Positions 1 to 19,477 are shown, counted from the first letter of the stretch. The stretch is 23,789 bases of DNA from a virus (IMGVR_UViG_3300009776_000631); one strand, 5' to 3'. The notes: a model not told the origin generated them from the letters alone. Program-made: numbers and translations.

Positions 1-867
1 CGCTGCGTTGGTGGCTGTCAGGTTCGCCAGATACGTGCCGGTTGACAGGTACGTGTGCACGGGGTTCTGTACCGTTGAATTGGTGCTGTTGCCATCCCCG
101 AAGTCCCAGAGCCAGCTTGTCGGAGTGTTGGTGCTGGTGTCGGTGAAGGTGACGGTGAGAGGAGCGGTGCCGTTCGTTGGAGTGGCGGTGAACTCTGGTA
201 CTGGCGGCTGTTCGTAGGTCACGAGGACACGCCCGGCGTACTGCGCTCCGGCCTCCGCTGTACGGAATATCAGTAGCGACTGGCATCCGGATCCCCATTC
301 GGGTTCAGCGTTCATTATGTCGCTGTCAAGAAGGATCGCAAACCCGATATCTCCACTTGAAGGGATTGCTGTGAGATTCGTGATGTGGAAGGTATTGTTT
401 CCGGTTGAGACTGAAGACAGGATCCGGCTGTCGGACGCATTGGCGAAATCAAAGTTGTCATAATCGTCAGGCGAGATCGCGCCGTCAACATGAAACATGA
501 CGACGTTTATCCAGGCGTCCCTAAGGGTAGTCGTTGCTGCCGAGTTCACGTTTACGATCAGGTCCAGAGCCGTAATCGTCGCGTCACTTGGAATGACTGC
601 AGGATCCCTCTGGAAAATCCAGATCGGACGGTAATACCGATACCATTTCCCGGTTTTTAAGTCTCCTGATACCCAGGCATTACTTGTCGTCCCGGTCGCC
701 CCGCCGGTAGTAGCTGTAGAGTTGTCCCTATCCTGCGTCCACGTCAGGTTATGGACGTTCATGCCAAGCTGCCCATCGCTTGATTCATTGACGACAACTG
801 TTACCGTTGTTGCACTTACACCAGAAATCAGGAAAAAGAGGAGAAGTGCTAAAAGAACTCGTCTCAT
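1..867 (-). CDS. Secreted PKD-domain surface protein (partial, runs off window start; not in ORF track)
   Basis: Manual translation from ATG 867 (ATGA overlap with upstream stop): MRRVLLALLLFLISGVSATT signal peptide, open to base 1, with PKD motif PEFTATPTNGTAPLTVTFTDTSTNTPTSWLWDFGDGNSTNSTVQNPVHTY; many N-x-S/T sequons. Confidence 0.9.
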   Translation of the reverse strand, partial: MRRVLLALLLFFLISGVSATTVTVVVNESSDGQLGMNVHNLTWTQDRDNSTATTGGATGTTSNAWVSGDLKTGKWYRYYRPIWIFQRDPAVIPSDATITALDLIVNVNSAATTTLRDAWINVVMFHVDGAISPDDYDNFDFANASDSRILSSVSTGNNTFHITNLTAIPSSGDIGFAILLDSDIMNAEPEWGSGCQSLLIFRTAEAGAQYAGRVLVTYEQPPVPEFTATPTNGTAPLTVTFTDTSTNTPTSWLWDFGDGNSTNSTVQNPVHTYLSTGTYLANLTATNAA

Positions 868-1154
868 GTATCACCAAACCTTGCAAAGACAACTCTGTGC
901 GTCTGATTGCATCCGAAGCTATTACAGCTTTCAAGATTGACAATGAAATATCCGGGACTACGATAGTTGTGTGTTGCTGATAGAGACGTTGAATTCGCGG
1001 TCATATCCCCCCATGACCAGTTCCTCCGAGTAATTGATCCGGAAGAAGTGTCGTTAACGTAGACTCCCTGCGGGATCGTGACGTAGTTCCTGGAGATCGA
1101 GAGCAGACACAGCGCTACCAGCAGGATCAGGATTATGCTGCGGTGTGGGGTCAT
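864..1154 (-). CDS. Small secreted protein with single PKD-like domain
   Basis: Hydrophobic N-terminus IILILLVALCLLSI; PKD-like WSWGD...THNYRSPGYFIVNL; overlaps neighbours by 4 nt on both sides. Confidence 0.75.
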   Translation of the reverse strand: MTPHRSIILILLVALCLLSISRNYVTIPQGVYVNDTSSGSITRRNWSWGDMTANSTSLSATHNYRSPGYFIVNLESCNSFGCNQTHRVVFARFGDT

Positions 1155-4895: not shown

Positions 4896-5161
4896 AACGA
4901 TCTCCAGCAGTTCCTCTGCACCGGGACCTCAACCCGATCGCGGCATTCCCGGAGGCCCGGGCAGGTCCAGCAGAACGGCGGATCGTTCCGGAGCCGGAAG
5001 ACCCGGACGAACGCGGGCTCGTGGACGTGCTGCAGCTCGTGGTCGATGATGAAGATCTGGTCTTCAGCAGTCCGGATCTGATGGAGCAGGTGGTCCCTGC
5101 GGGCCTGGAGGCAGACACGGAGGAGGTTGCTGTCCTGGATGTCTGCGGTGCAGCCGGTCAC
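4892..5161 (-). CDS. Hypothetical protein with CxxC...C motif
   Basis: ATGA-coupled; short coiled coil then FCWTCPGLREC. Confidence 0.7.
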   Translation of the reverse strand: MTGCTADIQDSNLLRVCLQARRDHLLHQIRTAEDQIFIIDHELQHVHEPAFVRVFRLRNDPPFCWTCPGLRECRDRVEVPVQRNCWRSL

Positions 5162-5622
5162 TCGGCGGCCCCCTTGCCTTTCTTCCTGGCCTTCGCTGCT
5201 TTGATGATGTCTTCGGGCGGGATCCCGGTCCGGGCCGATACCTCCATGGTCTTCCGGGCGAGTTCCAGGGTCTTCATGTCGGTTTCAATCGGGGGGTTGT
5301 CGCCGTAGATGACCGTCAGCTTGGTGTCGTCCTCTCCTGTCGATGCCCCGGCCTCGAAGTCAGTCAGTGTATGATTGATGGGGCCGGATACATCGAAGGT
5401 GCAGGAGAGCGTGTATTTGACCAGTTGCACCCCGCACCGGGCGATGCCGAACTCTTCGGACATCTTCCGCCGGACCCTTTCCGTGAGCTCATCCATCATC
5501 TGGACGATATCGCCGGATCCTTCGGCCGTGATGCCGAGTTGCTTGACCGAGATCGTATATTCCGGGACGTCTGGCTTGACGTCCGGATCGAACTTGATCG
5601 TGCCCTTGGTTTCAAGCGACAT
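5158..5622 (-). CDS. Hypothetical protein (weak HicB-like segment)
   Basis: ATG 5622 directly after the PCNA stop; YTISVKQLGITAEGSGDIVQMMDEL loosely resembles the HicB fold. Confidence 0.65.
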   Translation of the reverse strand: MSLETKGTIKFDPDVKPDVPEYTISVKQLGITAEGSGDIVQMMDELTERVRRKMSEEFGIARCGVQLVKYTLSCTFDVSGPINHTLTDFEAGASTGEDDTKLTVIYGDNPPIETDMKTLELARKTMEVSARTGIPPEDIIKAAKARKKGKGAAE

Positions 5623-5623
5623 G

Positions 5624-6358
5624 TTACGGTCCCTCCTTTGCATCAATTCTCGGGGCGAGCAGGAATTCTACACTCATGCCCTCGACCGTGCACGCGAACT
5701 TAATCGGGTGATCAGTCGACAAACTGACCGTGATATCCCCGCTGGCGCCTTTCAGCACCCGGGCGATGTCCTTCAGGTAGTCGAGAGAGAACAGGGAGGT
5801 GAACCATTCGGATGTGTCCTTGACAGCCTTGCCTTCGATCTCCTTCTTCAGGTGATCCGTGTCGCCTTCCGTCTCGAACTTGAGGGTGCCGCCCTTCGCG
5901 CTGATGGTTACCTTGTCGTTGATCAGCGCCATGGCTTTGATGACCTCGTTCAGTTCTCCGGCGGGGATCTCAAGGACGGCCGGCAGCTGGATGTTCGGCG
6001 GGTTCGGGTCCTTCCGGATCGTGTTGACGTCCAGGAGCATGTTGCCGTAGTTGTACCGGCCGTCGCTCATCTGGATCCGGTTGCCGTTCTCGGCGATGGT
6101 GACCTGCCCGGTCTTGTCGAGGATGTTGAGCGCGGTTTTGGTCTTGCCGATGTCGAGCCCCATAACCTTGAGCCCTTCCCCGTCGCTCTTGTATTCCGCG
6201 AACGCTTCCTTGGGCAGCCGGGCGCTGACCATCGCGACGTTGGCGGTGTCGACCGCCCGGGTTTCGAGTCCTCCATCTTTCAGCCATACACGGCATTCCG
6301 GCGCGAGTGCGGCCACTGCGTCGATGAATGCCAGCAGTTTCTTGTGATCGATCTTCAT
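5624..6358 (-). CDS. pcn: DNA polymerase sliding clamp PCNA (paralog 1, close to canonical)
   Basis: 244 aa; archaeal PCNA motifs RAVDTANVAMV, GLDI, LLDVNTIRKDPNPP, SLFSLDYLKD, TDHPI, LLAPRI. Confidence 0.95.
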   Translation of the reverse strand: MKIDHKKLLAFIDAVAALAPECRVWLKDGGLETRAVDTANVAMVSARLPKEAFAEYKSDGEGLKVMGLDIGKTKTALNILDKTGQVTIAENGNRIQMSDGRYNYGNMLLDVNTIRKDPNPPNIQLPAVLEIPAGELNEVIKAMALINDKVTISAKGGTLKFETEGDTDHLKKEIEGKAVKDTSEWFTSLFSLDYLKDIARVLKGASGDITVSLSTDHPIKFACTVEGMSVEFLLAPRIDAKEGP

Positions 6359-8862
6359 GATTCGGGTTCCTCCTCCTTCTTTTTCGGCTTCCTGCTCGCG
6401 CTGCGTTTCTTCTCTGGCTTCTCCCCGATCAGGTGCTGCGTAGGGCAGTAATTCTGCTCGGTGAGTTTCTTGCCGGTCTTCGTGCAGATCCCGCCTTCCC
6501 AGTCAAGGGAGGGGCAGTTCCGGATCGTGCTGCACCAGGTGATGTTCGGGATCTTGTCCGCTTTTGAGATCCATGCCTCGCACTTCGTCCGGGCCGTCTC
6601 CTCCATCAGGACCTTGGCGCTCTTGTCGCCGCCTTTGAACAGCAGCTCGCCGAGCCGTGGGCAGGTCTCATGGAAGGTCTTCCTGCCCTTATGGTGCCCG
6701 CAGGTGCCGCAGGAGCCCGGAGTCGGACCGCCGCTCTTGACTGGTTGCTCCTTCGCGGCCTCAAAAATGAATTTGAAAACTCCGGTGTCGAGCTGCGAAT
6801 CTATCTGCAGAAGGGAGCGGCCGATCTTGACGTACTCCGGGTTAATCTCAATACCGACAGAGGAACGGCCCATATCTCGCGCCTTCCGTGTGACCGTACC
6901 GGTTCCCCAGAATGGATCCAGCACAACACAGGGAACGGGATCCCCGGCATTGCATTCACAGGTCGGTTTCCAGCCTTTGAACTCGCGCCGGTATCCTTTC
7001 GTCGGTGCCCCGCATATCGCCCCGATCACATCGTCTTGTTCATGCGGGGTCCATGAACCCTGACCAATGGATCCGCCGCTTGTCTCGATGATGCGCCGGT
7101 ATGGTGCGCCGCATTTCGGGCAGCAGCCATACTCGCTTGTACCGGCCGCAATGCATCGGCGTGGGATCTCATCGGGGAATGTTGCGAAATGCGCCTCCGG
7201 GCGGGCCTGCGTTGCGATGGTCCATACCGTGCGGGCGTTCCGGGTGATGCCATCACAAATCGGCTGCCCGTCAGATCCGAGATCTCCGGAATGGTTCGAT
7301 AGGCTCTTCGACCTCGCAGCAATCTTGTTTTTATACCGTTCGTTGAACCCGGTATATGTCGGATTCCCTGTCAGGTCTTGTTTTCTGATCGTCTTCTTCT
7401 CGGGGCTCGCCCATGTTGCGAGTGAAAAGGACCGGTTCTGCCGGATACCATTGCCCGGTGCGGTGACTTTCGGGAGCGGCCCTTTGTAGTTCCCGTGCGG
7501 ATGGGCGTTGCCGGATACTGGTTCCCGGGCACCATCGGCGTCATAGAAATATTTCCCGTTCTTTGTGAGCAGGAAAATATACTCATGGCTCTTGGTCGGG
7601 CGATCCGTGACGCTCTCCGGCATCGGGTTCGGCTTCGACCAGACAATGTCAGAGCGGAGATACCAGCCATCATCCTGCAGGGCGAGGGCGACGCGCCACG
7701 GCACGCCCATCATATCTTTTGATTTCAGGCCGTCGGGGACCTCCGTCCCCGGATCATGGAATCCCTGCCGTTTTGTCTGGTCGCCGATACCGTTCTTTCC
7801 GGTCGGTCCTTTCCCGCTGCCCGCGTAACAGTCTCCGATATTGAGGAACACCGTGCCGTCATCCCGGAGGACCCGCCGGACCTCCCGGAATACCTTAACG
7901 ATCTTATCAAGATATTCCGTAAGTGAATCCTCGAGGCCGATCTGCCCATCAATCCCATAATTCCGGAGCTGGTAATAGGGAATGCTCGTGATCACGCACT
8001 GGATGAGGCCGGACGGGATCCGCTGGAGGCCGTCCATAACATCGCCCTGAATGATCCGGTGGACCATCGCTGCAGGGGGCTGCGATGCTTCGGTGTCGGG
8101 ATTCTCCGGGGGGGCAGCCTTGATTTGTCGGGATTTTGTCGGGATTGCTGGGGCCGGGGATGGTGGACATGCCGGTTCCTGCGCTGGTGGCGAGGCCGGG
8201 GCCGGCAGCAGCTTCGCGGGGATCCGCCAGAGCGGGCAGACCGGCAGGTCCGCGAGCGGGACCTTGATCACCGGGCAGGTGGTTTCGCCGATCCCGCAGC
8301 GCTTGACACCGTCCGGGCAGAACTCGCCTCCGCATTTGAGCGGGGTGATCGTGTATCGATCGCGGTCCTGGACGATCTCCTGCAGGGCCTTGAGCTGGTG
8401 CTCCTGGTCCGGGTTCCCGAGAACATGGCAGAAGCAATATCCGCCGAGGCTCTGGCCGAGGATGTCGCCGGTGAAAGCGCACTTCCAGATGGTGCCCGTC
8501 TTCTTCTCGTATTGCCCCGCGCCGGTCTTACTGAACTTCTCCCCGATCTCGGAGAATTTATACGGACAGGTTGCCGGGCAGTTCTTCGGCCCGGGGACCT
8601 TGCTTTCATATTTCTGATCCTCGTCTCCGCGCAGATGCCAACCTCCGGTGTGGAGGAGGACCCACGGATCGATCGCGGGGTCCTGGATGCAGCAGGGCAG
8701 CGTGCCGGGCATGGTGTTGAATACCTGACATCGCTCCTGTGCGTCCTCTGGGTATGCCGTGTCCTCGTTCTTCCGGAGCTGGGGGCATTTCCGTTCCCGG
8801 CAGTTCTTAATTCCCCACTTCTTTTCCTTCGGGAGTTCTTTTCCCATGCAGGAGGAGCTCAT
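6355..8862 (-). CDS. Beta-class N4-C/N6-A DNA methyltransferase with Cys-rich N- and C-terminal extensions
   Basis: Core about 6775-8067: IIQGD, catalytic TSIPY, LRDDGTVFLNIGD, LRSDIVWSKPNPMPES, HEYIFLLTK, HFATFP, SAM motif VLDPFWGTGT, GIEINPEY; internal CPKC...CEC zinc insertion. Confidence 0.92.
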   Translation of the reverse strand: MSSSCMGKELPKEKKWGIKNCRERKCPQLRKNEDTAYPEDAQERCQVFNTMPGTLPCCIQDPAIDPWVLLHTGGWHLRGDEDQKYESKVPGPKNCPATCPYKFSEIGEKFSKTGAGQYEKKTGTIWKCAFTGDILGQSLGGYCFCHVLGNPDQEHQLKALQEIVQDRDRYTITPLKCGGEFCPDGVKRCGIGETTCPVIKVPLADLPVCPLWRIPAKLLPAPASPPAQEPACPPSPAPAIPTKSRQIKAAPPENPDTEASQPPAAMVHRIIQGDVMDGLQRIPSGLIQCVITSIPYYQLRNYGIDGQIGLEDSLTEYLDKIVKVFREVRRVLRDDGTVFLNIGDCYAGSGKGPTGKNGIGDQTKRQGFHDPGTEVPDGLKSKDMMGVPWRVALALQDDGWYLRSDIVWSKPNPMPESVTDRPTKSHEYIFLLTKNGKYFYDADGAREPVSGNAHPHGNYKGPLPKVTAPGNGIRQNRSFSLATWASPEKKTIRKQDLTGNPTYTGFNERYKNKIAARSKSLSNHSGDLGSDGQPICDGITRNARTVWTIATQARPEAHFATFPDEIPRRCIAAGTSEYGCCPKCGAPYRRIIETSGGSIGQGSWTPHEQDDVIGAICGAPTKGYRREFKGWKPTCECNAGDPVPCVVLDPFWGTGTVTRKARDMGRSSVGIEINPEYVKIGRSLLQIDSQLDTGVFKFIFEAAKEQPVKSGGPTPGSCGTCGHHKGRKTFHETCPRLGELLFKGGDKSAKVLMEETARTKCEAWISKADKIPNITWCSTIRNCPSLDWEGGICTKTGKKLTEQNYCPTQHLIGEKPEKKRSASRKPKKKEEEPES

Positions 8863-9188
8863 GGCGTACCCCCCGCCGCGCTCAGCTGGCCGCTTTCCTG
8901 CGGGCTGCCGGTACTGAGTGGCCGGGCAAACGACCGGTTGCCATTCCGGTTATGCCGCGCACCGCTGTAAGCTGTGAATCCCAGCCGGAGCAGCGCACAG
9001 GAGATCTCCATCTTGGCGATCCGGTCGGTCCTCCTTGCCAGCTCCGGGAAGTCTGCCGGGTGGTCCCTGACCCATATCAGCAGCGGCATGGTGCTGACGT
9101 ATGTCTTCTCTGCCGGGTAAGCGGCTGCCTGGAGCGCGAGGACTTCTTTGTCGACCGTTGATTTGTGCGGGGATGCAGTGGTTAGCAT
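8859..9188 (-). CDS. Hypothetical protein
   Basis: ATG 9188 overlapping the HNH-like stop; ATGA overlap with the MTase start. Confidence 0.65.
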   Translation of the reverse strand: MLTTASPHKSTVDKEVLALQAAAYPAEKTYVSTMPLLIWVRDHPADFPELARRTDRIAKMEISCALLRLGFTAYSGARHNRNGNRSFARPLSTGSPQESGQLSAAGGTP

Positions 9189-9700
9189 GCGACCATCGCC
9201 TCCCGGCCCACGAACCCGGTACACTCCCGGGCCCGGCGCCACGAGTAATTACAGGTGCCGCCGTTCCTGCAGCCCTGGTATTTCTCCCTGCGCTGACAGG
9301 GGTGGTGGACCGCGGCCTTCCGCCCGTGGTGGACCCGCTTGTGGTGCGACTTCTTGCCGCCGCGGCAATGCCAGCACTTCTCGGCGCCGGGCTTCATATA
9401 GTGCCGCTTGCACACCGGGCAGATCACGAACCCGCGCCGGTACATCCAGTGGCATTTCCCACAGGCCGGCGTGCCGTTCTCGTCGAGGTTGTAGTATGCC
9501 TCCTTGCTGTGATAGGACCGCGGATCGTCGTGATGCGCGAGGGTTGCCGGGCGCCCGCAGTACTCGCAGATGGGGTTCTTCAGCAGGAACTCGGCTTCGA
9601 TTGCCTGATACTCAGGATCTGCCCACCATGCTGCGGTCTGCTGCTTGTGGAGTTCGGCAGCGATGGCGCCGGGGTTGGTGGTCGTGATGGGGCTGATCAT
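9182..9700 (-). CDS. HNH-like nuclease with additional zinc fingers
   Basis: CEYCGRPATLAHH...NGTPACGKCH (HNH zinc/active-site pattern), then CPVC...CWHC and a C-terminal Cys cluster; start 9700 by ATGA overlap. Confidence 0.75.
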   Translation of the reverse strand: MISPITTTNPGAIAAELHKQQTAAWWADPEYQAIEAEFLLKNPICEYCGRPATLAHHDDPRSYHSKEAYYNLDENGTPACGKCHWMYRRGFVICPVCKRHYMKPGAEKCWHCRGGKKSHHKRVHHGRKAAVHHPCQRREKYQGCRNGGTCNYSWRRARECTGFVGREAMVAC

Positions 9701-9798
9701 GGGTGCGTCAGCCTCCACGCTACCGCGCCGGTGATGATCAGCAGGATGACGAGCCCGACCAGGAGCCGGACACGCCAGATGAGGTCGGAGCGCATCAT
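9697..9798 (-). CDS. 33-aa single-TM peptide
   Basis: MMRSDLIWRVRLLVGLVILLIITGAVAWRLTHP; 4-nt overlaps on both sides. Confidence 0.7.
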   Translation of the reverse strand: MMRSDLIWRVRLLVGLVILLIITGAVAWRLTHP

Positions 9799-10007
9799 AG
9801 GACCGGCCGCCCCCGTGCACTCTTCAGGTACGGGAGATCGCGCCGCCCCTTCGGGACCCGCATATCCGGGCGGCAATCGGTGACCCGGGCGCACGGGATC
9901 CCGGCAACCTCGCAATAGTCTTCCTTCAGCTCCGGGTACTTCGGCACCCTCACGAGGTGGTGATGGCCGCACCGCAGGCAGTACCGGCGGATTTCACTGG
10001 TATGCAT
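9795..10007 (-). CDS. Small Cys-rich (zinc-binding) protein
   Basis: CLRCGHHH...C...C...C; preceded by GGAGGG RBS. Confidence 0.7.
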   Translation of the reverse strand: MHTSEIRRYCLRCGHHHLVRVPKYPELKEDYCEVAGIPCARVTDCRPDMRVPKGRRDLPYLKSARGRPVL

Positions 10008-10010
10008 TGA

Positions 10011-10508
10011 TTAACCCTCCATGACGATGGCCGCCACAATCGGGTACAGATCCTTCCATTGGAGGTCCTGCCGGGTGGCGATGCTTACTTCATCTGCGAG
10101 ATCCTCGCGCTTCCGGGACCAGCACATATGATCGCGGTCCCGCAGGTACTCCCGCTTGAATTCGAGCTTCCGGACTGCTTCCCGGGTGGCCTGTTCGATG
10201 GCTGCCCGTTTCTCTGCCTCTTGTCGTTCCCGATCCGCCTTCCGGGTTTCCTCATCCTGGATGATCTTCCGCTGTGACATTTTTTCACGGCGGATCTTAT
10301 CGGCAAGCTCCCGGGCCTTCTGCCGGATTGAGGTTTCAGGAAGATCGTCACCTTCGAGAATGAACTCCTCAAGCATCTGGTTGACGAAGGCGGAGAGCAT
10401 CCGCTTATTGCCAGTCATTGCGGTGAGCTTACGGGTGGCGAGAAAAACGACCTCTTGATCGAGGTAGAGGTTTGTCTGCTTGAAATTGATATCCTTCAGG
10501 GGGAGCAC
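10011..10508 (-). CDS. RHH-like DNA-binding protein with coiled coil
   Basis: KQTNLYLD-QEVVFLATRKL-LSAFVNQMLEEFI strand-helix-helix pattern; charged coiled coil follows; GTG start. Confidence 0.7.
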   Translation of the reverse strand: MLPLKDINFKQTNLYLDQEVVFLATRKLTAMTGNKRMLSAFVNQMLEEFILEGDDLPETSIRQKARELADKIRREKMSQRKIIQDEETRKADRERQEAEKRAAIEQATREAVRKLEFKREYLRDRDHMCWSRKREDLADEVSIATRQDLQWKDLYPIVAAIVMEG

Positions 10509-10540
10509 CCCCGCTGGATTTTCTTTCCTGAAATGGAATT

Positions 10541-10578
10541 ATATAATATAATATAATCTTTTTTCTTAGTAGTAGTAG
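10541..10578. repeat. AT-rich microsatellite: (ATATA)3 and (TAG)4
   Basis: ATATA x3 at 10541-10555, T-run, TAG x4 at 10567-10578, in otherwise GC-rich DNA. Confidence 0.85.
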
Positions 10579-10590
10579 GAGGTGCAGGGA

Positions 10591-11730
10591 TCATTCATCC
10601 TCCCCCGCGCTCGTCAGGAACCAGTTCGCCGCTTTCTTCAGGAAGTCCGCCCGGGTCCGGATACCCTCGTATCGCGCCTGGATGAGTTCATCCACCATCC
10701 TGACCTCTTTCTCGGTGAAGAACCCGGACCGTTCGATCAGGTCATCGGCGCACTTGTTCAGCTCCTCGCAGGTCATCGGGGTTTTGACAATCCGGATGCC
10801 GCCGGGCCTGATGATCTTCGCGCCATCGAGCCGGGCGCTCGCTACGGCTGCCTGACCTTCCGGTGAGGCAAGATACTGCCGGCGAAGTACCGGACACTCT
10901 TTCTGGTTCACGATGAGGTTGCCGCTGCCGGCGCACTTGTTCCCCAGGACCTGCTGTTTGACCAGAAGATCGGTGGGTCCTGGGCACGGTTTGCCGGCCT
11001 TGCAGGGAGGTGTAAAGTCCGGGGCGGGCGGCAGGGTGGTTGCGGTCGTGAATGCCGGCTGGTTCTTTGCAGCTTCTGCGATCTCCTGTCTCCGGGCCTG
11101 CTCCTGATCGATCTGCGTTACGGTTTTGGGAGGATCGACCGGCTCGCCATCATGGAGCGGCGCGAAGAAGTGCTCGGGTTTCGCTGGCTCCGGATCCTTT
11201 TTTCCGATCTTGTCGGTTTTCATGCGCGAAACGGTGCCATGCTTAGTTGCATAGGTGCGCGTTTTCGTCGGTGGCTCTGAATCCTCACTACCGGATTTCC
11301 GGTAGTGAGAACGGTACTTTGACACGGTTTCCGGGTGGACGTTGCAGACTTCCGCGATCTTGTTGTCCGACCATTTCGACCATTCCTTGTCATTCAGCAG
11401 GCGCTCGACAGCCCGGCGTTTGTCCTCATTCGTCCTGCGGAGACCATGGGTAGCATTGACGCCGGAAGCAAACAGGATCGCGTCCCGCATCTTACCCTCG
11501 TGGATGTTACAGAGCACCTTCTTGATGCCGGAGGATTGTGCAGCCAAGAGCCGGTGATACCCATCCACTAAGACATACTCACCGTCAACCCGGAAGACTT
11601 CCAGCGGCGGGAATTTACCGCCCGCCTTCATGCTCTCCGAGTACTCATCAACGACCGCCATGTGCATGTTTACGCGGGGCTGCGTTGCGGCATCTTGTTT
11701 GATCTGCCCGATTGGGATAAGCTCTGTCAT
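10591..11730 (-). CDS. ParB/Srx N-terminal domain protein with HTH and C-terminal Cys module
   Basis: QPR, FPPLEVF, LVDGYHRLLAA (ParB arginine patch), HGLRRTNEDKRRAV, WSDNKIAEVCNVHPETVSKYR helix-turn-helix. Confidence 0.9.
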   Translation of the reverse strand: MTELIPIGQIKQDAATQPRVNMHMAVVDEYSESMKAGGKFPPLEVFRVDGEYVLVDGYHRLLAAQSSGIKKVLCNIHEGKMRDAILFASGVNATHGLRRTNEDKRRAVERLLNDKEWSKWSDNKIAEVCNVHPETVSKYRSHYRKSGSEDSEPPTKTRTYATKHGTVSRMKTDKIGKKDPEPAKPEHFFAPLHDGEPVDPPKTVTQIDQEQARRQEIAEAAKNQPAFTTATTLPPAPDFTPPCKAGKPCPGPTDLLVKQQVLGNKCAGSGNLIVNQKECPVLRRQYLASPEGQAAVASARLDGAKIIRPGGIRIVKTPMTCEELNKCADDLIERSGFFTEKEVRMVDELIQARYEGIRTRADFLKKAANWFLTSAGEDE

Positions 11731-11894
11731 GGACAGCCCGCCTCCCGCAGCCTGATGGCCCGGTGTTCATACAGCACCGGTACCGGCAGATCATAGATCG
11801 TCTGTACGTTATGCCGGGCCAGCTCCGCCCGGAGATCCTGCGAACGTTCCCGGGCCGGGACCATCCGCTCAAGCATGCGTTTTCGCTTGCCCAT
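11727..11894 (-). CDS. 55-aa hypothetical protein (not in ORF track)
   Basis: Manual translation MGKRKRMLERMVPARERSQDLRAELARHNVQTIYDLPVPVLYEHRAIRLREAGCP; ATGA overlap with ParB; GTGA RBS. Confidence 0.7.
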   Translation of the reverse strand: MGKRKRMLERMVPARERSQDLRAELARHNVQTIYDLPVPVLYEHRAIRLREAGCP

Positions 11895-11900
11895 GCCGGA

Positions 11901-12083
11901 TCACACTCTCTTGCTATCTGCTGTCAGATCCCCGTGTTCGACCCAGACCAGTCTTTTGCACTTCACACATTGCCAGAGCGATCCTTTGCTGATTATCTCG
12001 CCACCCGCTGAGATTATCGAATGCTCGTGGGTTCGGCAGATCTTCTCAAATTCGTGTCCGCAACATTCTTTACATATTGCCAT
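11901..12083 (-). CDS. Small zinc-ribbon protein
   Basis: CKECC...CVKC; GGGGTGA RBS. Confidence 0.75.
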   Translation of the reverse strand: MAICKECCGHEFEKICRTHEHSIISAGGEIISKGSLWQCVKCKRLVWVEHGDLTADSKRV

Positions 12084-12089
12084 GCCGGA

Positions 12090-12893
12090 TCACCCCTCGA
12101 CCGGTGCAGACAACGCCGGGTATCCCGTCTCCGGCTGTCGCTTCAGGCCGGATGCAAAGAGGATCGATTCCCGCCACCGGATCCTGATCTCCCGGTGCCC
12201 GCTGGTCGCTTCGAACCAGTACTCCTCACCGAACTCATCGCCCTTCGGCTGCAGCCGCCAGACCGGGCCTTCCGGGTACTGGTAGCCGTGATTATACAGG
12301 TACGAGTTGACCTCCCGGGCATTCAGGCCGCAGCGCTCTCCCAGCTGTGTAGGATTCAGCCAGGTGCCGCCCTCTCCATGGATGAGACACGGTGCCTTGA
12401 GCGCCTCGATGTATTCCGGCATGCCGCACTTTTTCAATGCAACCGCCTGGAACGCTTTCAGGTCGCCGCCAGTCAATCCGGCGAGGTTCCGGGCACGGTT
12501 CATCTCCGCCTCGATGGTCAGGACTGCCGGGCCAAGGGAAGGTGCCGCCGTCTCCCGGTCAGCGTCCATTTTCTCGAGGGCGATCTTCCGGAGATCCAGC
12601 AGCTGGTCCAGGGGCAGCTTGGATTTTGACGGATGGATGATCAGGAACAGGTAATCAACACCGGTCCGGTTCAGGCAGAGGAATTGCTGCTGCCCGCCGG
12701 GGGTCGGAAGGGATACGTAGGTTTTGTAAGGGCTCATTTTTTCCTTGAACCCCTCTATCGCGCTGTCGATCCCGCTCCGGCTGTACCCGATCATCTTGGC
12801 GATATCGAGTACCGGGATGACCGGCCCGATCGGGGAGTCCGCAATCCGGAGCCAGCTCTCCATGCCTTCGGGTTTGAGGATCCGGACGGTCAC
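12090..12893 (-). CDS. Phage antirepressor-like protein (BRO-N-like plus KilA-C/ANT-like)
   Basis: VIPVLDIAKMIGY...PTPGGQQQFLCLNRTGV (BRO-N-like); LNPTQLGERCGLNAREVNSYLYNHGYQ...WRLQPKG (KilA-C-like); GTG start via GTGA overlap. Confidence 0.8.
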   Translation of the reverse strand: MTVRILKPEGMESWLRIADSPIGPVIPVLDIAKMIGYSRSGIDSAIEGFKEKMSPYKTYVSLPTPGGQQQFLCLNRTGVDYLFLIIHPSKSKLPLDQLLDLRKIALEKMDADRETAAPSLGPAVLTIEAEMNRARNLAGLTGGDLKAFQAVALKKCGMPEYIEALKAPCLIHGEGGTWLNPTQLGERCGLNAREVNSYLYNHGYQYPEGPVWRLQPKGDEFGEEYWFEATSGHREIRIRWRESILFASGLKRQPETGYPALSAPVEG

Positions 12894-13954
12894 GCGCCCA
12901 CCTTCGCGAGGTTGCTGCGGTTGATCCATTCCATACCATTGTCGAATGAGACAAGCACTTCCGGCTGTCCCTGCGGGATGCGCTTGATCCTACCGGTGCC
13001 TTGGAAAATGACCGGGTGGCCGGTATGCCGGACCGTATCTCCAATCCTGAAGGAGCCGTCGTCCGATGGCGTCGGAGACGGTGCAGGTTGCGCGATCGCT
13101 TCCAGGGCTTCCCGTGCCTCCTCTGCAAGCGTTTTATCATCCGGGGTGCCCATCGATTCGAACGTGGTCCCGCCGTTCTCGGTGTCGACCGAATATTCCT
13201 GCCCGACTGCCGGACCGGGTGGAACTACGTTTTCCGCCGTTTTCTGCACCTTGGCGTCTTTTTTCTTCTGCTTCGCTTCCTTCTTCGCCTGCCGGTCGAT
13301 GGCATACCACTTCATGCCGACGGCGTTATCGTTCCGCTTGCTGTCAGGGAATGCCGCCCGGTACGCCTTGACGGCGGTCTCCCGGTCCTTGATTTCTGCG
13401 ACGGCCTTGATCTCGTCCGGGCTCCACTTGCCATTCTCCATATGGGCACCGCCTCTCTTCTCCCGTGGCTCTGGCTTCTTCGCCTTGGCTTTGATGATCT
13501 GCCGTGCGGTGGGCTTCTTCCCCGGAAGTTCCTCCCGGGCCTTCGCGGCCTGCCGGTCCGCCTCCTTTTCAGTTTCGGTCAGGAGGTCGCCCGATATACC
13601 CCCGGGCGGTGTATCCTTCGGAACCTCGTGGTACTGGTCCCACCACCGGGTCACCGTTGACTTGCCCCGGCTACTGTTCGGGAACGCTGCCTGATACCGC
13701 GTCCATGCGTCCTCCTTCGACTGTGCCACCCTGACGACGTCCTTCTCCGCGTCGCTCCAGGGCACCATCACGAAATGCTTTGGCGTCGTCGATGTCCGCT
13801 GCGGTGCTGCAACCCTCGCGAGAAACAGGTCGATCTCCTTCTCAACATGACGGGCGTCGGTCTGTGTGATCCCCTCGACAGAGAAGCCGAAGGAGACAGT
13901 GGCCTTGCCGTCCTTGATTTGCGTATCCCGGTTTGCGTTGTAGGTTTCGATCAT
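12890..13954 (-). CDS. Protein with two Myb/SANT-like repeats and a C-terminal SH3/Tudor-like domain
   Basis: Two 43-aa repeats WS..E...Y.AAFP.S.R....V...W; C-terminal FRIGDTVRH...GTGRIKRI...VLVSFDNG. Confidence 0.75.
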   Translation of the reverse strand: MIETYNANRDTQIKDGKATVSFGFSVEGITQTDARHVEKEIDLFLARVAAPQRTSTTPKHFVMVPWSDAEKDVVRVAQSKEDAWTRYQAAFPNSSRGKSTVTRWWDQYHEVPKDTPPGGISGDLLTETEKEADRQAAKAREELPGKKPTARQIIKAKAKKPEPREKRGGAHMENGKWSPDEIKAVAEIKDRETAVKAYRAAFPDSKRNDNAVGMKWYAIDRQAKKEAKQKKKDAKVQKTAENVVPPGPAVGQEYSVDTENGGTTFESMGTPDDKTLAEEAREALEAIAQPAPSPTPSDDGSFRIGDTVRHTGHPVIFQGTGRIKRIPQGQPEVLVSFDNGMEWINRSNLAKVGA

Positions 13955-13972
13955 GCGAAAAATTCCACCCTT

Positions 13973-14125
13973 TCAGTCATCCAATTCGACAAAATAGGCA
14001 GCCGCGGTCATCCCGCGGTTGAGATCGTTCGCGAGTTCTTCCGCATCCTTCAGAGCGACCGGGGTGCTATGCAGGTATCGGATTACCTGCCCGTTCACGG
14101 TCGCTCCGAGGTAAACAGGGGGCAT
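13973..14125 (-). CDS. 50-aa hypothetical protein (not in ORF track)
   Basis: Manual translation MPPVYLGATVNGQVIRYLHSTPVALKDAEELANDLNRGMTAAAYFVELDD; TGATG overlap with the PCNA-2 stop. Confidence 0.7.
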   Translation of the reverse strand: MPPVYLGATVNGQVIRYLHSTPVALKDAEELANDLNRGMTAAAYFVELDD

Positions 14126-14913
14126 CACAACCACCCCGCAGTATCAGTCAGCGTATCATCGGATTCTATTCGGGGGGCGAGCGCATATGCAACAGTCAGC
14201 CCCGGCGCCATCGCTGCCGTTATCCGGATCGGATGGTCGGTGCCCATCTCGACCGATAACTGGTGCCCGGCAAGCACCCGAGAAAGGTCTTTCAGGTAGT
14301 CGAGGCTGAACAGGGATGCCGCGATTGCGGAACCACCACAGATCGCGATCGGGATCTTGCACTGGGTCCGGGTGTCGCCCATCGCCGCCATGGTGACGAC
14401 CCCGGTCTTGAGGACCTCAATCCGGCACTTATCAGAAAAGACGCCGCAGATCCGGACGGCCCGGGCGAAGTCATCACCGCTGCAAGAGAATACCGCGGGG
14501 AGATCGGCTTTGAACCCGACCGTATCTTTCCTTATGGTCGTTTCGTCAAGCGTCTCGATACGGTACCGGTCCTTCCCGATTCCGTCGATATCAAGATAGG
14601 GGCGGACCGGATCCCTCCCGGCGCTCCATGAGAGGGTCACGGTGCCTTCCGGTGCCGGCTCTCCTTCCGTGATGCACCGGAGCGCCGAATCGAGCTGCGC
14701 GATGTCCAGGCCGAGGACTGCGCTGCCCGGGTAACCCTGGACCGCCATCCTGATATCGATCAGGCCAACATTCGCAGAATCAACGGTGAAGACCCGGGCC
14801 TCCCCATCTTTGATGTGGACGCGGCACTCACAGACCAGCGCTGCGAGGGCCCGGGTAAATTTTAGCAGCATCGGGTAGCCGATGGTGAATGAGCCGGGGT
14901 TGAAGGCGGGCAT
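14125..14913 (-). CDS. pcn: Divergent PCNA sliding clamp (paralog 2)
   Basis: 262 aa; ECRV, TVDSANVGLI, GLDIAQL, LDETTIRKD, SLFSLDYLKD, TDHPI, LAPRIE. Confidence 0.9.
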   Translation of the reverse strand: MPAFNPGSFTIGYPMLLKFTRALAALVCECRVHIKDGEARVFTVDSANVGLIDIRMAVQGYPGSAVLGLDIAQLDSALRCITEGEPAPEGTVTLSWSAGRDPVRPYLDIDGIGKDRYRIETLDETTIRKDTVGFKADLPAVFSCSGDDFARAVRICGVFSDKCRIEVLKTGVVTMAAMGDTRTQCKIPIAICGGSAIAASLFSLDYLKDLSRVLAGHQLSVEMGTDHPIRITAAMAPGLTVAYALAPRIESDDTLTDTAGWL

Positions 14914-14914
14914 C

Positions 14915-15316
14915 TCACAGCACCTCCTTCAGTGCCATGCGGATGGCCGCGTTCTGGCGCTCCAGCCCTTTGCAAGTCTCCCTCAAGAATAGGTTACCGA
15001 TCTCCAGTTTGCGGTGCTCCTTTGCCGTGTTCTGGATGGCCTCGGAGAGAAATTCACGATATTTTCCCTCGACCTCTTTTTCCTTTTCCAGTCGGGCTTT
15101 GAGTTCGAGGACCTCGCCGCCGAGCTGCTTGCATATCTCCCGCAGCTTGTCGCTCTCTCCTGCCTGCTGCTCAAGGGTTGCGATCTTCTCGGTCAGGGAG
15201 GCGATCTCAGCTCCGAACTGATTCCGTTCTTCCAGCACCCGGTCGAGCTCTCCCTGCGAGACTTCCAGATTCTTTCGGAGCTCGACCTCGAATCGGTTAG
15301 GCTTATGCGGGGGCAT
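14915..15316 (-). CDS. Coiled-coil protein
   Basis: MPPHKPNRFEVELRKNLE... heptad-rich; start at the TGATG overlap. Confidence 0.75.
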   Translation of the reverse strand: MPPHKPNRFEVELRKNLEVSQGELDRVLEERNQFGAEIASLTEKIATLEQQAGESDKLREICKQLGGEVLELKARLEKEKEVEGKYREFLSEAIQNTAKEHRKLEIGNLFLRETCKGLERQNAAIRMALKEVL

Positions 15317-16113
15317 CACGCACCCCCGAAAGTCCGCTGGATATACTTCTCGACGATCTCCCTGGTGACTGCCGACTGCGTGCCGAGTGCCCGGAGGCTG
15401 TCGATCAGGCAGGCGCGGGCGGTCAGGAAGTCGGTCGCCGTGGCCTCGATCCTGAGGTTCTCGTAGTTGTTGAGGTTGACCGTGGCGGAGAGGGTGATCT
15501 CCTTGACGGTACCGGTTGCCGCAGGGGACGTGCAAGGCTCTTGCGGTGCCGGCTGTTCTTCTTTCTTGAGTTCCGCCGCAGTCTTCAGGACCGGCGCCGG
15601 ATCCTGTTTCTGCGTCTCGATCCTCTCAATGCCGGCTGCTGCCAATCCGTCTCCCCGGCGGTCATCCAGCAGGCCGAGCCGGACCATATCACCGGGCTTA
15701 ATCGGGCAGTCCGGGGCATTCAGGTACTTCAGGAGCAGGTCAGAACCGCAGCTATAGGTATTCTTGGAGCCATCAACCTTCAGGACGACATTCTTACCGG
15801 GGGTCCCGACGAACTCCCCTGTCACATACTTCGCGTTCTCCGGCTCCTTTGCAGGGGCCGGGGGCTGGCCGGGAACCTGGCTCTTTGCCCTTGCCTCATC
15901 TGCCTCGGCCTGCGCGATCTCTGCCTTTGAAGGGGCGACCATGCTCCTGGCAGTACCCTTCTCGACTGTTACCTTCGCGAATGATCCGGGAGGGAAGTTC
16001 TTCTGTGCCGGTACCCGGTCCTCCGGGGGAACGAAGATGATCTTCCCGCCGACAATGACGTTTGAGGGGTCGTACTCGCTGACCCGGCCTACGATCGTTG
16101 CCATGGCGGTCAA
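15316..16113 (-). CDS. Hypothetical protein, two beta-rich (possibly OB-fold/ssDNA-binding) modules
   Basis: TIVGRVSEY...GSFAKVTV and YVTGEFVG...KPGDMVRL modules joined by Pro/Ala linkers; C-terminal VNLNNYENLRIE. Function is inference. Confidence 0.6.
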   Translation of the reverse strand: MTAMATIVGRVSEYDPSNVIVGGKIIFVPPEDRVPAQKNFPPGSFAKVTVEKGTARSMVAPSKAEIAQAEADEARAKSQVPGQPPAPAKEPENAKYVTGEFVGTPGKNVVLKVDGSKNTYSCGSDLLLKYLNAPDCPIKPGDMVRLGLLDDRRGDGLAAAGIERIETQKQDPAPVLKTAAELKKEEQPAPQEPCTSPAATGTVKEITLSATVNLNNYENLRIEATATDFLTARACLIDSLRALGTQSAVTREIVEKYIQRTFGGA

Positions 16114-17247: not shown

Positions 17248-17622
17248 TCAGGCCCCCTCGCAGACCTTGGTTTCTGAGCTGACGATAGTCTTTGTACGAT
17301 CCATCAACCCTTCTCGTGCCGCGAGCGATCGGACGCCCTCATTTACGAAGTCATCATCGTCATATCCCTTCTCGCGGAGCGCGGCCTCCTCATCCCACAG
17401 GCCCGGTTTAAGCTCGCCGGTTATCAGGTGACAGTTGGGGTACAACCCCTCCTGTTTCGCAATGAACTCCACCCCGGCATTAGCAATGGGGACCTTCGAA
17501 AGCTTCTTGCCCTCTGAGATCCACTTCGCCAGAATCTTCCCAAGGAGATCGTCGTGGAATGGGTCCATACGGGCGCCGATGAAATCGGTTGTCCGCTCAT
17601 CCAGTGGTGTCTTGTTTCCCAT
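17248..17622 (-). CDS. First early gene, RHH-like regulator (Cro-like role inferred)
   Basis: FIGARMD-PFHDDLLGKILAKW-SKVPIANAGVEFI strand-helix-helix; first gene after the divergent AT-rich region. Confidence 0.6.
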   Translation of the reverse strand: MGNKTPLDERTTDFIGARMDPFHDDLLGKILAKWISEGKKLSKVPIANAGVEFIAKQEGLYPNCHLITGELKPGLWDEEAALREKGYDDDDFVNEGVRSLAAREGLMDRTKTIVSSETKVCEGA

Positions 17623-17753
17623 TGTTTACCACAATTAAACAATGTGCACAACTTGTTTAAAAAACTTTCTATCAACGTTCACTATTCGTAAACAAATATA
17701 AATTCGGTAATTTTGATATACTCAAGCACTCATTTGTTAACCGGTGTGGCACA
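17622..17753. promoter_or_regulatory. Divergent promoter region with repeated TAAACAA/TTGTTTA operator-like motifs
   Basis: AT-rich; motif at 17622-17628, 17636-17642, 17653-17659, 17689-17695, variant at 17734-17740; TATA-like TTTTAAA (minus, about 17657-17663) and AATATAAA (plus, 17695-17702). Confidence 0.7.
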
Positions 17754-18017
17754 ATGGGGACTGAACCGCTTATCCCTCATGGTTTTAAAATACCGAAATC
17801 GAAAAGTGATAAGATCGTTTCGTATGCAAAAGAGCGAGACGTGAAGATCTCGGTTATCCTGAACGAAGCTGTGACTGAATATATCAACCGCCGGGAGCAT
17901 CCGGAGCGCCAGATTGAGATGATCCAGCATGTCCTCCTCACTCATCCGGAACTTCTTGACGAGCCTCTACGTCGTTACAACGCTTGGAATTTATCAGGGC
18001 GGACCTCGAACCAATAA
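17754..18017 (+). CDS. RHH transcriptional regulator (probable repressor)
   Basis: PHGFKIP-KSKSDKIVSYAKERD-KISVILNEAVTEYI classic RHH/CopG pattern; divergent from the early operon. Confidence 0.8.
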   Translation: MGTEPLIPHGFKIPKSKSDKIVSYAKERDVKISVILNEAVTEYINRREHPERQIEMIQHVLLTHPELLDEPLRRYNAWNLSGRTSNQ

Positions 18018-18198: not shown

Positions 18199-19290
18199 CT
18201 ATTTAGGCTTTCCTACCTTCTCCCGGATCACGTCGTCCCGGACAGTCTTCAGCGTCTCGATATCCCGCAGGGCCTCAAGGGAGAGCGGCCTGCTGCAGCG
18301 CGAACAGAACCCGGACCCTGCAGCATTCTGGAACCCGCACCGCGGGCACTTGACCGGCTTCAGTGGGTCGGCCGGCTGATCTTCCGGGTTCAGGTCCACC
18401 CCCTCGATCTGCAGGATCTTGTTGTCGATATCCCGGCCGGACAGGTGCACGTAGACTGCTGCCATGCCGGACCGCTCGCTCCACCCGGCATACTTCCGGA
18501 GCTCCGATTCAGTGAGTTGCTTGCCTCGCTGGGTCAGTCTGCCGTGCCGGAAGGCATGGGGGTTCGTCTTCTTCTGCACCCCCGCAAGGTCCCGCAGGCG
18601 CTTGAAGAGGTTCTGGACGGTACGTTCATCTAGGCGTGAGTAGGTTGTGGTCCCCCGTTTCCGCGAGGTGACGAAAAGGGGAACGTCGGCGTCATGCTTC
18701 AGCGGATGGAACTTATCGATCCAAGTCTGGAGATCCGGGGCGGCGCTCACGATCCGGATCTGCCGCTGGCCGGTCTTGCCGGTGACGGTCAGGACCGCAC
18801 CGTACTGGTCAAACTTGACATGCCCGACATTACAGCCCAGGAGCTCGTTCAGCCGGGCGGCGCTGTCCCAGTACGTGGCAACGATCGCACGGTCCCGCTG
18901 GGTCTCGCAGACATCCAGGAGCTTTGCCACGTTCCCGGCCTGCAGGACCTTCTCGGGCGGGATCTCGTGCCGGGGCCTCGCTGGCTTGAAGGCGACGATC
19001 TTCTTCTCCGGCAGGAGCCAGCGATAGAAAAGTTCCAGCTCCTGGACATCATGGAACGCGGTGACCGGGGATTTTGTCTTCTTCCGGTGCAGGAAATAGT
19101 CCTCGATATCGTGCGGCTGCACGGCCTTCGCGTCCTGGAATTTATACCAGATCAGGAACGTATAGATTTTCCAGAGCTTGTTCTGGATTGTCAGTGCGCT
19201 CAGGTTCCGGAGCTCCAGCGATCGCAGGTAGCCCGATAAATATTCACGATTTTTATAATCAAGGTTTTTGAATTTGTGCCACACTTCCAT
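18199..19290 (-). CDS. Tyrosine integrase with C-terminal zinc ribbon
   Basis: Catalytic DSAARLNE (R), GKTGQR (K), HAFRH (HxxR), AGWS (W), AVYVH (Y); CPRC...CSRC tail; likely ATG 19290 with a TATA-like box at about 19313-19319. Confidence 0.95.
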   Translation of the reverse strand: MEVWHKFKNLDYKNREYLSGYLRSLELRNLSALTIQNKLWKIYTFLIWYKFQDAKAVQPHDIEDYFLHRKKTKSPVTAFHDVQELELFYRWLLPEKKIVAFKPARPRHEIPPEKVLQAGNVAKLLDVCETQRDRAIVATYWDSAARLNELLGCNVGHVKFDQYGAVLTVTGKTGQRQIRIVSAAPDLQTWIDKFHPLKHDADVPLFVTSRKRGTTTYSRLDERTVQNLFKRLRDLAGVQKKTNPHAFRHGRLTQRGKQLTESELRKYAGWSERSGMAAVYVHLSGRDIDNKILQIEGVDLNPEDQPADPLKPVKCPRCGFQNAAGSGFCSRCSRPLSLEALRDIETLKTVRDDVIREKVGKPK

Positions 19291-19336
19291 GATCTTTTGT
19301 TGGTGCAGGCCGTATATTACGCCATTGTCCTGTACA

Positions 19337-19349
19337 AGGTTGAGGGCCT
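19337..19349 (+). repeat. att-core-like 13-bp direct repeat of the tRNA anticodon stem-loop (AGGTTGAGGGCCT)
   Basis: Identical to 19424-19436 inside tRNA-Leu; AAGG-TTGAGGG-CCTT is a 7-bp spacer flanked by inverted repeats. Confidence 0.8.
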
Positions 19350-19392
19350 TCGACGAATGACTGGCACAATATCGTGGCGCAAGTGCAGATGG

Positions 19393-19477
19393 GCGAGGGT
19401 TGCCAAGACAGGTCAAAGGCGTCAGGTTGAGGGCCTGATCTCGTAGGAGTTCGAGGGTTCAAATCCCTTCCCTCGCA
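19393..19477 (+). tRNA. trnL: tRNA-Leu (anticodon GAG), complete, no encoded CCA
   Basis: Acceptor GCGAGGG/CCCTCGC plus discriminator A; D-arm GCCAAGACAGGTCAAAGGC; anticodon arm TCAGG-TTGAGGG-CCTGA; long variable arm; T-arm GAGGG-TTCAAAT-CCCTT. Confidence 0.95.

Follow-up and report, generated by a model that had tools for sequence, protein, structure and literature searches.

We analysed a 23,789-nucleotide stretch of DNA, called the window below, from the virus record IMGVR_UViG_3300009776_000631. The window encodes two distinct sliding clamps of the PCNA type, here named PCNA1 and PCNA2. We propose that they are one member each of two old virus-specific PCNA lineages, and that they form two separate homotrimeric rings with different jobs and not a mixed ring. 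We give this reading a probability of about 0.5. Two separate homotrimeric clamps are the simplest arrangement because the interface residues have diverged and either family does without the other in different elements. In the 39,271-bp IMG/VR virus record, the window corresponds to bases 6765-30553, read on the reverse strand. Pfam and PHROG scans covered all large open reading frames (ORFs) of this record, and no polymerase, clamp loader (RFC), primase or helicase was recognised among them. The two clamp genes and the methyltransferase gene next to the first are as follows.

5624-6358, minus strand: PCNA1, 244 residues, no internal stops; Pfam PCNA_N 1e-7 and PCNA_C 2e-10, both above the cut-off
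6355-8862, minus strand: 835-residue DNA methyltransferase, N6_N4_Mtase with long extensions; Pfam PF01555 1.9e-38
14125-14913, minus strand: PCNA2, 262 residues, no internal stops; extended at the N-terminus, with conserved cysteines, an insertion that spans about residues 96-106 and a C-terminal tail that is acidic (...ESDDTLTDTAGWL)

Two full-length clamps had been proposed at these positions by a first-pass annotation made from the DNA alone, and both ORFs are found there. The four motifs that it quoted, VDTANV or VDSANV, SLFSLDYLKD, TDHPI and LAPRI, are present in both translations. In BLASTP the two proteins share 33% identity over 257 columns (E 3e-35), and because they are only 33% identical they are not an assembly duplicate, in agreement with the earlier judgement. 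PCNA1 matches the Archaeoglobus (A.) fulgidus PCNA 1rwz with E 2e-31 and the Haloferax PCNA with 4e-26. It is 42-47% identical to cellular PCNA of Methanomicrobiales and 44-87% identical to viral relatives. For PCNA2 the two Pfam domains score 14.4 and 11.4 bits (E 0.04 and 0.27), short of the cut-offs, and its match to NCBIfam NF002222 (E 1.6e-28, 99.9 bits) stays below the cut-off of 207. Full-length matches of PCNA2 are obtained to Haloferax PCNA 3hi8 (2.6e-18) and to A. fulgidus PCNA (5.7e-16). Judged by these alignments, PCNA1 and PCNA2 are both PCNA homologues across both domains and over the full length.

The AlphaFold2 model of PCNA2, calculated from a 40-row alignment, has a mean predicted local distance difference test score (pLDDT) of 90.5 and a predicted template modelling score (pTM) of 0.87. 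It contains two helix-and-strand repeats in a two-domain clamp topology. The top Foldseek matches of this model are all PCNAs, with template modelling (TM) scores of 0.79-0.87 and E down to 5e-21; the scores to 1rwz and 3ifv are 0.79-0.85. With high confidence, PCNA2 is predicted to fold as a clamp subunit. Compared with an orthologue that is 59% identical (P0003, on a 1.8-kb contig where the upstream coiled-coil gene is also kept), PCNA2 gives dN 0.32, dS 1.34 and a ratio of nonsynonymous to synonymous substitution rates (dN/dS, omega) of 0.24 by the Nei-Gojobori method, which is an upper estimate as dS approaches saturation. The ratio shows that PCNA2 is not decaying. The same ratio for PCNA1 against three relatives is 0.38-0.51 (Nei-Gojobori), and both clamps are under purifying selection. 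The first-pass annotation had considered that the second protein might not fold as a clamp or might drift neutrally; the model and the substitution ratio point the other way. In addition, 16 contigs from several samples (JGI, ENA, Logan) carry the identical PCNA2 protein, so that it did not arise once by faulty assembly.

A two-sequence PCNA2 profile, run exhaustively with HMMER against 1.84 billion representatives, yielded 16 further clusters (P0212 to P0227, E 4e-72 to 3e-30). Canonical PCNAs begin only at 1e-26 in this search, and a PCNA1-type protein is found at 1.7e-22. From this gap in scores, we assign PCNA2 to a distinct unnamed clamp family of archaeal mobile elements with at least 17 clusters at 50% identity, a family that is missed by the standard Pfam and NCBIfam cut-offs. 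The family signature consists of G7 and F9 in the N-terminal extension, W96, G99 and P105 in the insertion, and T121, F142, C144, C156, C163, R164 and Q184, and all these residues are present in PCNA2. The near-invariant canonical lysine at position 73 is replaced in the family. An acidic C-terminal tail ending in Trp and Leu, Met or Ile is observed in 13 of 18 family members. The host FEN1 C-terminus is a canonical PCNA-interacting peptide (PIP) box, QKTL(E/D)(S/A)WF, and the PCNA2 tail has only the terminal Trp-hydrophobic pair in common with it. Eight cysteines are present in PCNA2 and eight in its orthologue, compared with two in PCNA1; those of PCNA2 include C28, C30, C144, C156, C163 and C185, several of them family-conserved. 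When the family profile was used in a word-indexed search, cellular PCNAs filled the results and no new members emerged, and an IMG/VR pattern search with PCNA2 alone gave no match. The family alignment diverges too strongly to serve as a pattern against viral or metagenome contigs. No PCNA2-type gene was found in 401 Methanomicrobiales genomes, where the best score is 196 bits as against 296-339 bits for family members, nor among the 80 best genome loci.

The pairing of the two clamps is rare. An IMG/VR pattern search with the clamp alignment gave 18 loci, whose whole records were then searched with the profiles. Exactly one PCNA is present in each of these 18 other virus records, seven of which are at least 90% complete, and among the 19 related records only that of the window has two. 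Paired clamps are not routine in this virus group; the first-pass annotation had named the opposite as something that would count against it. No second PCNA was found within 10 kb in the PCNA2-type loci L157 to L164 or in 80 cellular Methanomicrobiales loci. The PCNA1-type and PCNA2-type families each occur alone elsewhere, and because each is found alone in other elements neither depends on the other. The pattern of an obligate Sulfolobales-type heterotrimer, with paralogues that always co-occur and depend on each other, is not what we find. One record with two PCNA matches, OP630575.1, was rejected because it holds its genome in duplicate, with each gene as an A and a B copy, and not as divergent paralogues. 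No description of two PCNAs in a methanogen virus was found in the literature searched, which did not cover the 2023 compendium of methanogen viruses. Several cellular genomes of the phylum have at least two PCNA matches (six in G268; also G415, G042, G050, G053, G061 and G085), which may be proviruses, fragments or true paralogues.

The second clamp could also be a redundant passenger, brought in by recombination between mosaic viruses and kept for now with no separate role. The rarity of the pairing (one of 19 records), the mosaic nature of tailed-virus genomes and the fact that each family is evidently sufficient alone elsewhere would fit such an origin. However, a dN/dS of 0.24 across the 59%-identical orthologue pair with local synteny kept, the identical protein on 16 contigs from several samples and the retention of all family signature residues are not expected of a passenger, and we consider it unlikely.

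When PCNA2 and its orthologue alone were included in an LG+C20 tree, they joined the viral PCNA1 clade with support 97/97, beside the cellular Methanomicrobiales PCNAs. In the tree with the whole family, the PCNA2 family forms one group (19 rows, support 98) and the viral PCNA1 clade another (20 rows, 97; support 99 in a separate tree). The two groups together are split from all cellular PCNAs with support 97. The PCNA1 and PCNA2 families are, by these trees, likely sister lineages; the relationship is likely and not certain because the branches are long. Constraint tests on the unrooted tree were uninformative, as both splits are already in the best tree. PCNA1 is a canonical-looking viral clamp of a methyltransferase-linked clade of Methanomicrobiales viruses, which is seen both from its clade and from its gene order.

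The PCNA2 family differs from canonical PCNAs at the ring interface. Residues conserved in canonical PCNAs on the two interface strands are replaced in the PCNA2 family at Y115, Y117, E178, T182 and D183 (PCNA2 numbering). Residues of the PIP pocket and loop that are common to the PCNA2 family and the canonical clamps include V44, D45, N48, V49, R128, K129, D130, P131, P228, Y243 and L245-R248. The PIP-peptide pocket, the C-terminal strand and most of the interdomain loop thus appear, at sequence level, to be retained in PCNA2. A prediction of three PCNA2 chains with the family alignment scored 0.84, compared with 0.02 for the best of three controls, and the model supports binding. Of 30 proteins whose solved structures are pairs of one chain, 20 reach that mark, as does one of 23 that were solved as single chains. 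Since solved PCNA trimers exist, the pass may be due to similarity to known structures. The trimer runs agree in at least 97% of the contacts, with a partner pLDDT of at least 87. The predicted contacts are formed by the canonical strands, 181-188 against 114-120, and the flanking helices, and tail residues 260 and 262 lie on the same side. The partner side includes residues 99-100 and 106, within the family-specific insertion. The model suggests a tail contact across subunits, which we take as a lead and not as a result.

These features bear on the idea that both proteins form one virus-specific hetero-oligomeric ring in the style of Sulfolobales PCNA1-2-3, in which each subunit would have its own partner. 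The two proteins are divergent paralogues from one co-directional early gene block, they are sister lineages, and their interdomain loops differ, as would suit such a ring. But each family is found without the other, the clamp genes are 8.5 kb apart and do not adjoin, the interface residues kept by PCNA1 are replaced in the PCNA2 family, and PCNA2 alone is predicted to close a ring. A mixed viral ring is improbable on this evidence. Among the readings offered by the first-pass annotation, the obligate viral heterotrimer is disfavoured because the families occur alone and the PCNA2 family has replaced the canonical interface residues, and a clamp tied to the methyltransferase gains support for PCNA1.

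PCNA2 might also be a decoy or poison subunit, which would join the PCNA rings of the host or titrate its RFC and PIP-box enzymes, and so block host replication or redirect it to viral DNA. A virus without a polymerase has to take over host enzymes, and PCNA2 is fast-evolving with a very long stem branch and an unusual acidic Trp-Leu tail. Its pocket residues are kept, so that competition for host PIP proteins is possible, and host FEN1 ends with a suitable peptide. The changed interface residues, however, oppose mixing with host subunits, the closed PCNA2 homotrimer is predicted in canonical geometry, and family members also lie beside primase and helicase genes, as for a working clamp. We doubt the decoy role. 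The analysis gave no specific support to a decoy, to mixed host and virus rings or to a role like that of T4 gp45.

The changed interface also leads to a more specific and rather tentative proposal, that the PCNA2 type is an orthogonal clamp with its own interface, whose tail is a latch or docking peptide. Replication would then run on PCNA2 and methylation on PCNA1, both with the host loader and polymerases. If PCNA2 cannot mix with host or PCNA1 subunits, two private tool-belts would be possible for a virus without a polymerase.

PCNA1 is linked by gene order to the gene directly upstream. The stop codon of the methyltransferase gene overlaps the PCNA1 start by 4 bases (6355-6358), and PCNA1 indeed follows a methyltransferase, as first described. 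In all 14 of 14 related viral loci, the gene immediately before the PCNA1-type clamp encodes a homologue of the methyltransferase, which lends support to a tie between the two. The methyltransferase-then-pcn order of the window is also found in BK063669.1. Residues 723-813 of the methyltransferase share 83-88% identity with the homologues of L012, L013 and L014, although the clamps of these loci share just 42-44% with PCNA1; this C-terminal stretch may be a mosaic or strongly constrained module. Fusions of methyltransferase and clamp were sought among long proteins with a C-terminal PCNA, but these proteins are not of that kind: their N-terminal parts belong to no family except for one DUF6884. 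These fused clamps (P0239, P0249, P0251, P0263, P0268 and others) are metagenomic proteins of 375-697 residues, in which a full PCNA follows an N-terminal part of 130-450 residues.

In the two-ring reading, each ring would be loaded by host RFC, since no viral loader is present. Each would recruit PIP-box enzymes, because the PIP-pocket residues and most of the interdomain loop are conserved in both clamps. PCNA1 would serve the methyltransferase encoded directly upstream, perhaps together with host replication enzymes, and would tether methylation to new viral DNA. In eukaryotes PCNA recruits DNMT1, and the proposed arrangement would be much like the PCNA-DNMT1 pair. PCNA2 would be the clamp of the early replication and regulation module, and the interface of its family would prevent mixing with PCNA1 or host PCNA. 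Its acidic Trp-Leu tail could either latch neighbouring subunits together across their interface or serve as the peptide on which a partner docks. This division of jobs between the two clamps is suggested by gene order.

Several observations weigh against this reading. No canonical PIP box is found in the methyltransferase, in any early protein or in the neighbours of either clamp, and it is gene order from which we infer the link of methyltransferase and PCNA1. The central interdomain loop of PCNA2 and its two nearest relatives reads TVGFKAD, compared with the canonical PNPPNI, and because of this difference the set of partners may have changed unpredictably. The contexts of PCNA2-type genes cover 10 kb on either side or short contigs, so that a second clamp farther away could be missed, and the contig of the 59% orthologue, with its 1.8 kb, is silent on PCNA1 in that virus. 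The placement of the PCNA2 family rests on long branches, for which long-branch attraction is possible according to program warnings. Any binding, loading or activity of the clamps is putative.

A scan of all viral ORFs for PIP boxes gave five matches, compared with about three expected by chance. A canonical PIP box is fitted by QTNLMDWF at residue 420 of a 466-residue portal-like protein, encoded outside the window (G000:C1:34173-35573). This peptide is similar to the end of host FEN1, and chance would produce about three matches of its kind in this proteome.

Some parts of this system have known counterparts. Caudoviricetes sp. vir524 (BK063669.1) and related IMG/VR viruses are, like the window virus, temperate tailed viruses with an integrase and tRNA-Leu, the methyltransferase-then-pcn order and no polymerase. 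They differ from it in having one PCNA only, which is 46% identical to PCNA1; no PCNA2-type gene is found in them by tblastn or profile search. In Thermococcus (T.) kodakarensis, a clamp also called PCNA2 (TK0582) is encoded on the integrated element TKV3. It forms its own homotrimer, differs from the PCNA1 of that organism in the polymerase stimulated, and is not essential (PMC3914693; PMC3984812). TK0582 resembles our PCNA2 as a second PCNA on a mobile element in a euryarchaeal setting, and its structures 3lx1 and 3lx2 are among the matches. The partner clamp of TK0582, however, is the host's own, whereas in the window virus both clamps are viral and reside in one 39-kb genome; TK0582 is also of another lineage. 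Chlorovirus PBCV-1 encodes two PCNAs (PMC7019647), but this is a giant eukaryotic virus with its own PolB, RFC, primase and ligase, which the window virus lacks. Haloarchaeal tailed viruses (phiCh1, phiH, CGphi46, HHTV-1, HFTV1 and others) have a single clamp each, 25-33% identical to either clamp of the window. The heterotrimeric PCNA1-2-3 of Sulfolobales consists of several divergent paralogues, each specific for partners of its own (PMC3914693). These are always found together and build the ring only jointly, whereas the two families of the window virus occur independently.

Second PCNAs on mobile elements, two PCNAs in chloroviruses and single PCNAs in haloarchaeal tailed viruses are already known. 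New are the two viral clamp lineages in one small virus without a polymerase, the PCNA2-type family with its tail, and the invariant pair of methyltransferase and clamp. It is a recognised open question why a virus that lacks a polymerase should carry a clamp of cellular type (PMC4889955), and in the window virus nature has placed two such clamps in a single small genome, where they can be compared directly. The conserved terminal peptide and the changed ring interface of the PCNA2 family are easily testable. That viruses of Methanomicrobiales invariably pair a methyltransferase with a clamp suggests that archaeal DNA methylation may be coupled to a clamp. Their hosts are of practical importance, as they contribute to methane production in anaerobic digesters.

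The 39,271-bp record has a 127-bp direct terminal repeat, found by script, and is a complete 39.3-kb tailed virus with terminal repeats. The G+C content of the window is about 0.6, and nearly all its long ORFs are on the minus strand. A tyrosine integrase, a ParB-like protein, the N6_N4 DNA methyltransferase, and Kelch and PKD proteins are recognised in the window by Pfam and PHROG. The large terminase, portal and an HK97-gp10-like tail part are encoded outside it, as found in the same two databases. The resulting picture is of a temperate tailed virus of Methanomicrobiales that depends on host replication enzymes. Further genes of the window, from the vicinity of PCNA1 to the integrase, are listed here.

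5158-5622, minus strand: 154-residue gene directly after PCNA1, a gene call in L025; no match in Pfam or PHROG
10591-11730, minus strand: ParB-like protein containing a helix-turn-helix, between the two clamp genes; Pfam ParB_N 1.2e-5 and HTH_23, phrog_1033 ParB-like 3e-22
18199-19416, minus strand: tyrosine integrase, heading the early block of co-directional genes; Pfam Phage_integrase 6e-12, 363 residues as called in L025
19393-19477, plus strand: complete tRNA-Leu(GAG), found by ARAGORN, adjoining the integrase gene

The tRNA-Leu(GAG) is probably tied to the integration site, and the same pairing of integrase and tRNA-Leu is found in vir524 (BK063669.1). Homologues of the 154-residue gene lie directly downstream of the clamp in L004 and L005 (53% identity) and in L012 (36%), as detected by tblastn. 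A Kelch-repeat beta-propeller protein (20574-21647, minus strand) and a PKD-domain protein (864-1154, minus strand) are both located in the structural region and are probably tail or host-recognition parts. The nearest named relatives are Methanoculleus virus Blf4, through a short methyltransferase stretch with 86.7% identity, and vir524, whose stated host is Methanomicrobiales. In metatranscriptomes, short contigs identical to parts of the block, including PCNA2, occur at a depth of 2-3 in two runs from two studies; they do not show transcription, because RNA libraries may hold DNA.

The genes around PCNA2 are the following.

12090-12929, minus strand: 279-residue protein, phrog_29829, which recurs downstream of PCNA2-type genes
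12890-13954, minus strand: 354-residue lysine-rich protein that contains two internal repeats and, at its C-terminus, a small barrel; no family match in Pfam, PHROG or NCBIfam
13973-14125, minus strand: 50-residue ORF starting at the PCNA2 stop codon, in gene calls L025 to L028; no Pfam match
14915-15316, minus strand: 133-residue coiled-coil protein directly upstream of PCNA2, syntenic in L003 with 40-47% identity, dN/dS 0.44; weak match to an SMC-related model (E 0.0011)
15316-16104, minus strand: 262-residue protein with low-complexity linkers, not a clamp; no match in Pfam, PHROG or NCBIfam

PCNA2 had been described as sitting among putative recombination and single-stranded DNA genes. This description is not supported, as the neighbours match no such family in Pfam, PHROG or NCBIfam and give weak leads only. 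A structure look-up in the Atlas gave a weak lead to an oligonucleotide/oligosaccharide-binding (OB) fold for the 262-residue neighbour (TM 0.28) and a weak Gam-like lead for a 166-residue neighbour. The pairing of the coiled-coil gene with PCNA2 is kept in the 59%-identical relative. The 354-residue lysine-rich protein is possibly DNA-binding. Homologues of 275-280 residues to the 279-residue protein are found downstream of PCNA2-type genes in three otherwise different elements, namely the window, L158 (3039-3872, 36.5% identity, adjacent to the clamp gene) and L162 (9033-9860, 24.5%). This recurrent protein could be a partner of the PCNA2-type clamp family. The 279-residue protein may be a winged-helix regulator; its model has a pLDDT of 66 and no fold match.

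With such neighbours, one of the clamps might have left replication for another use, such as activating late transcription as a sliding factor in the manner of T4 gp45. PCNA2 is flanked by likely DNA-binding or regulatory proteins, and it is recognised as puzzling that some viruses have a clamp but no polymerase to go with it (PMC4889955). But a homologue of a clamp-binding transcription factor was not recognised, and no sequence feature points specifically to this use. No clamp-dependent activation is known in archaeal transcription, which also counts against it, and we regard repurposing as very unlikely.

Elsewhere, PCNA2-type genes are located in other virus-like early regions. In L159 the gene lies 1-3 kb downstream of genes for a Prim-Pol and a D5-like helicase, in line with the role in an early module that we propose for PCNA2. 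Another PCNA2-type gene is found 2.5 kb upstream of a methyltransferase. The L159 contig also carries an ORF of 131 residues with a Cas12f1-like TNB domain (17438-17833) and a gene for a MazE-like antitoxin (347-571).

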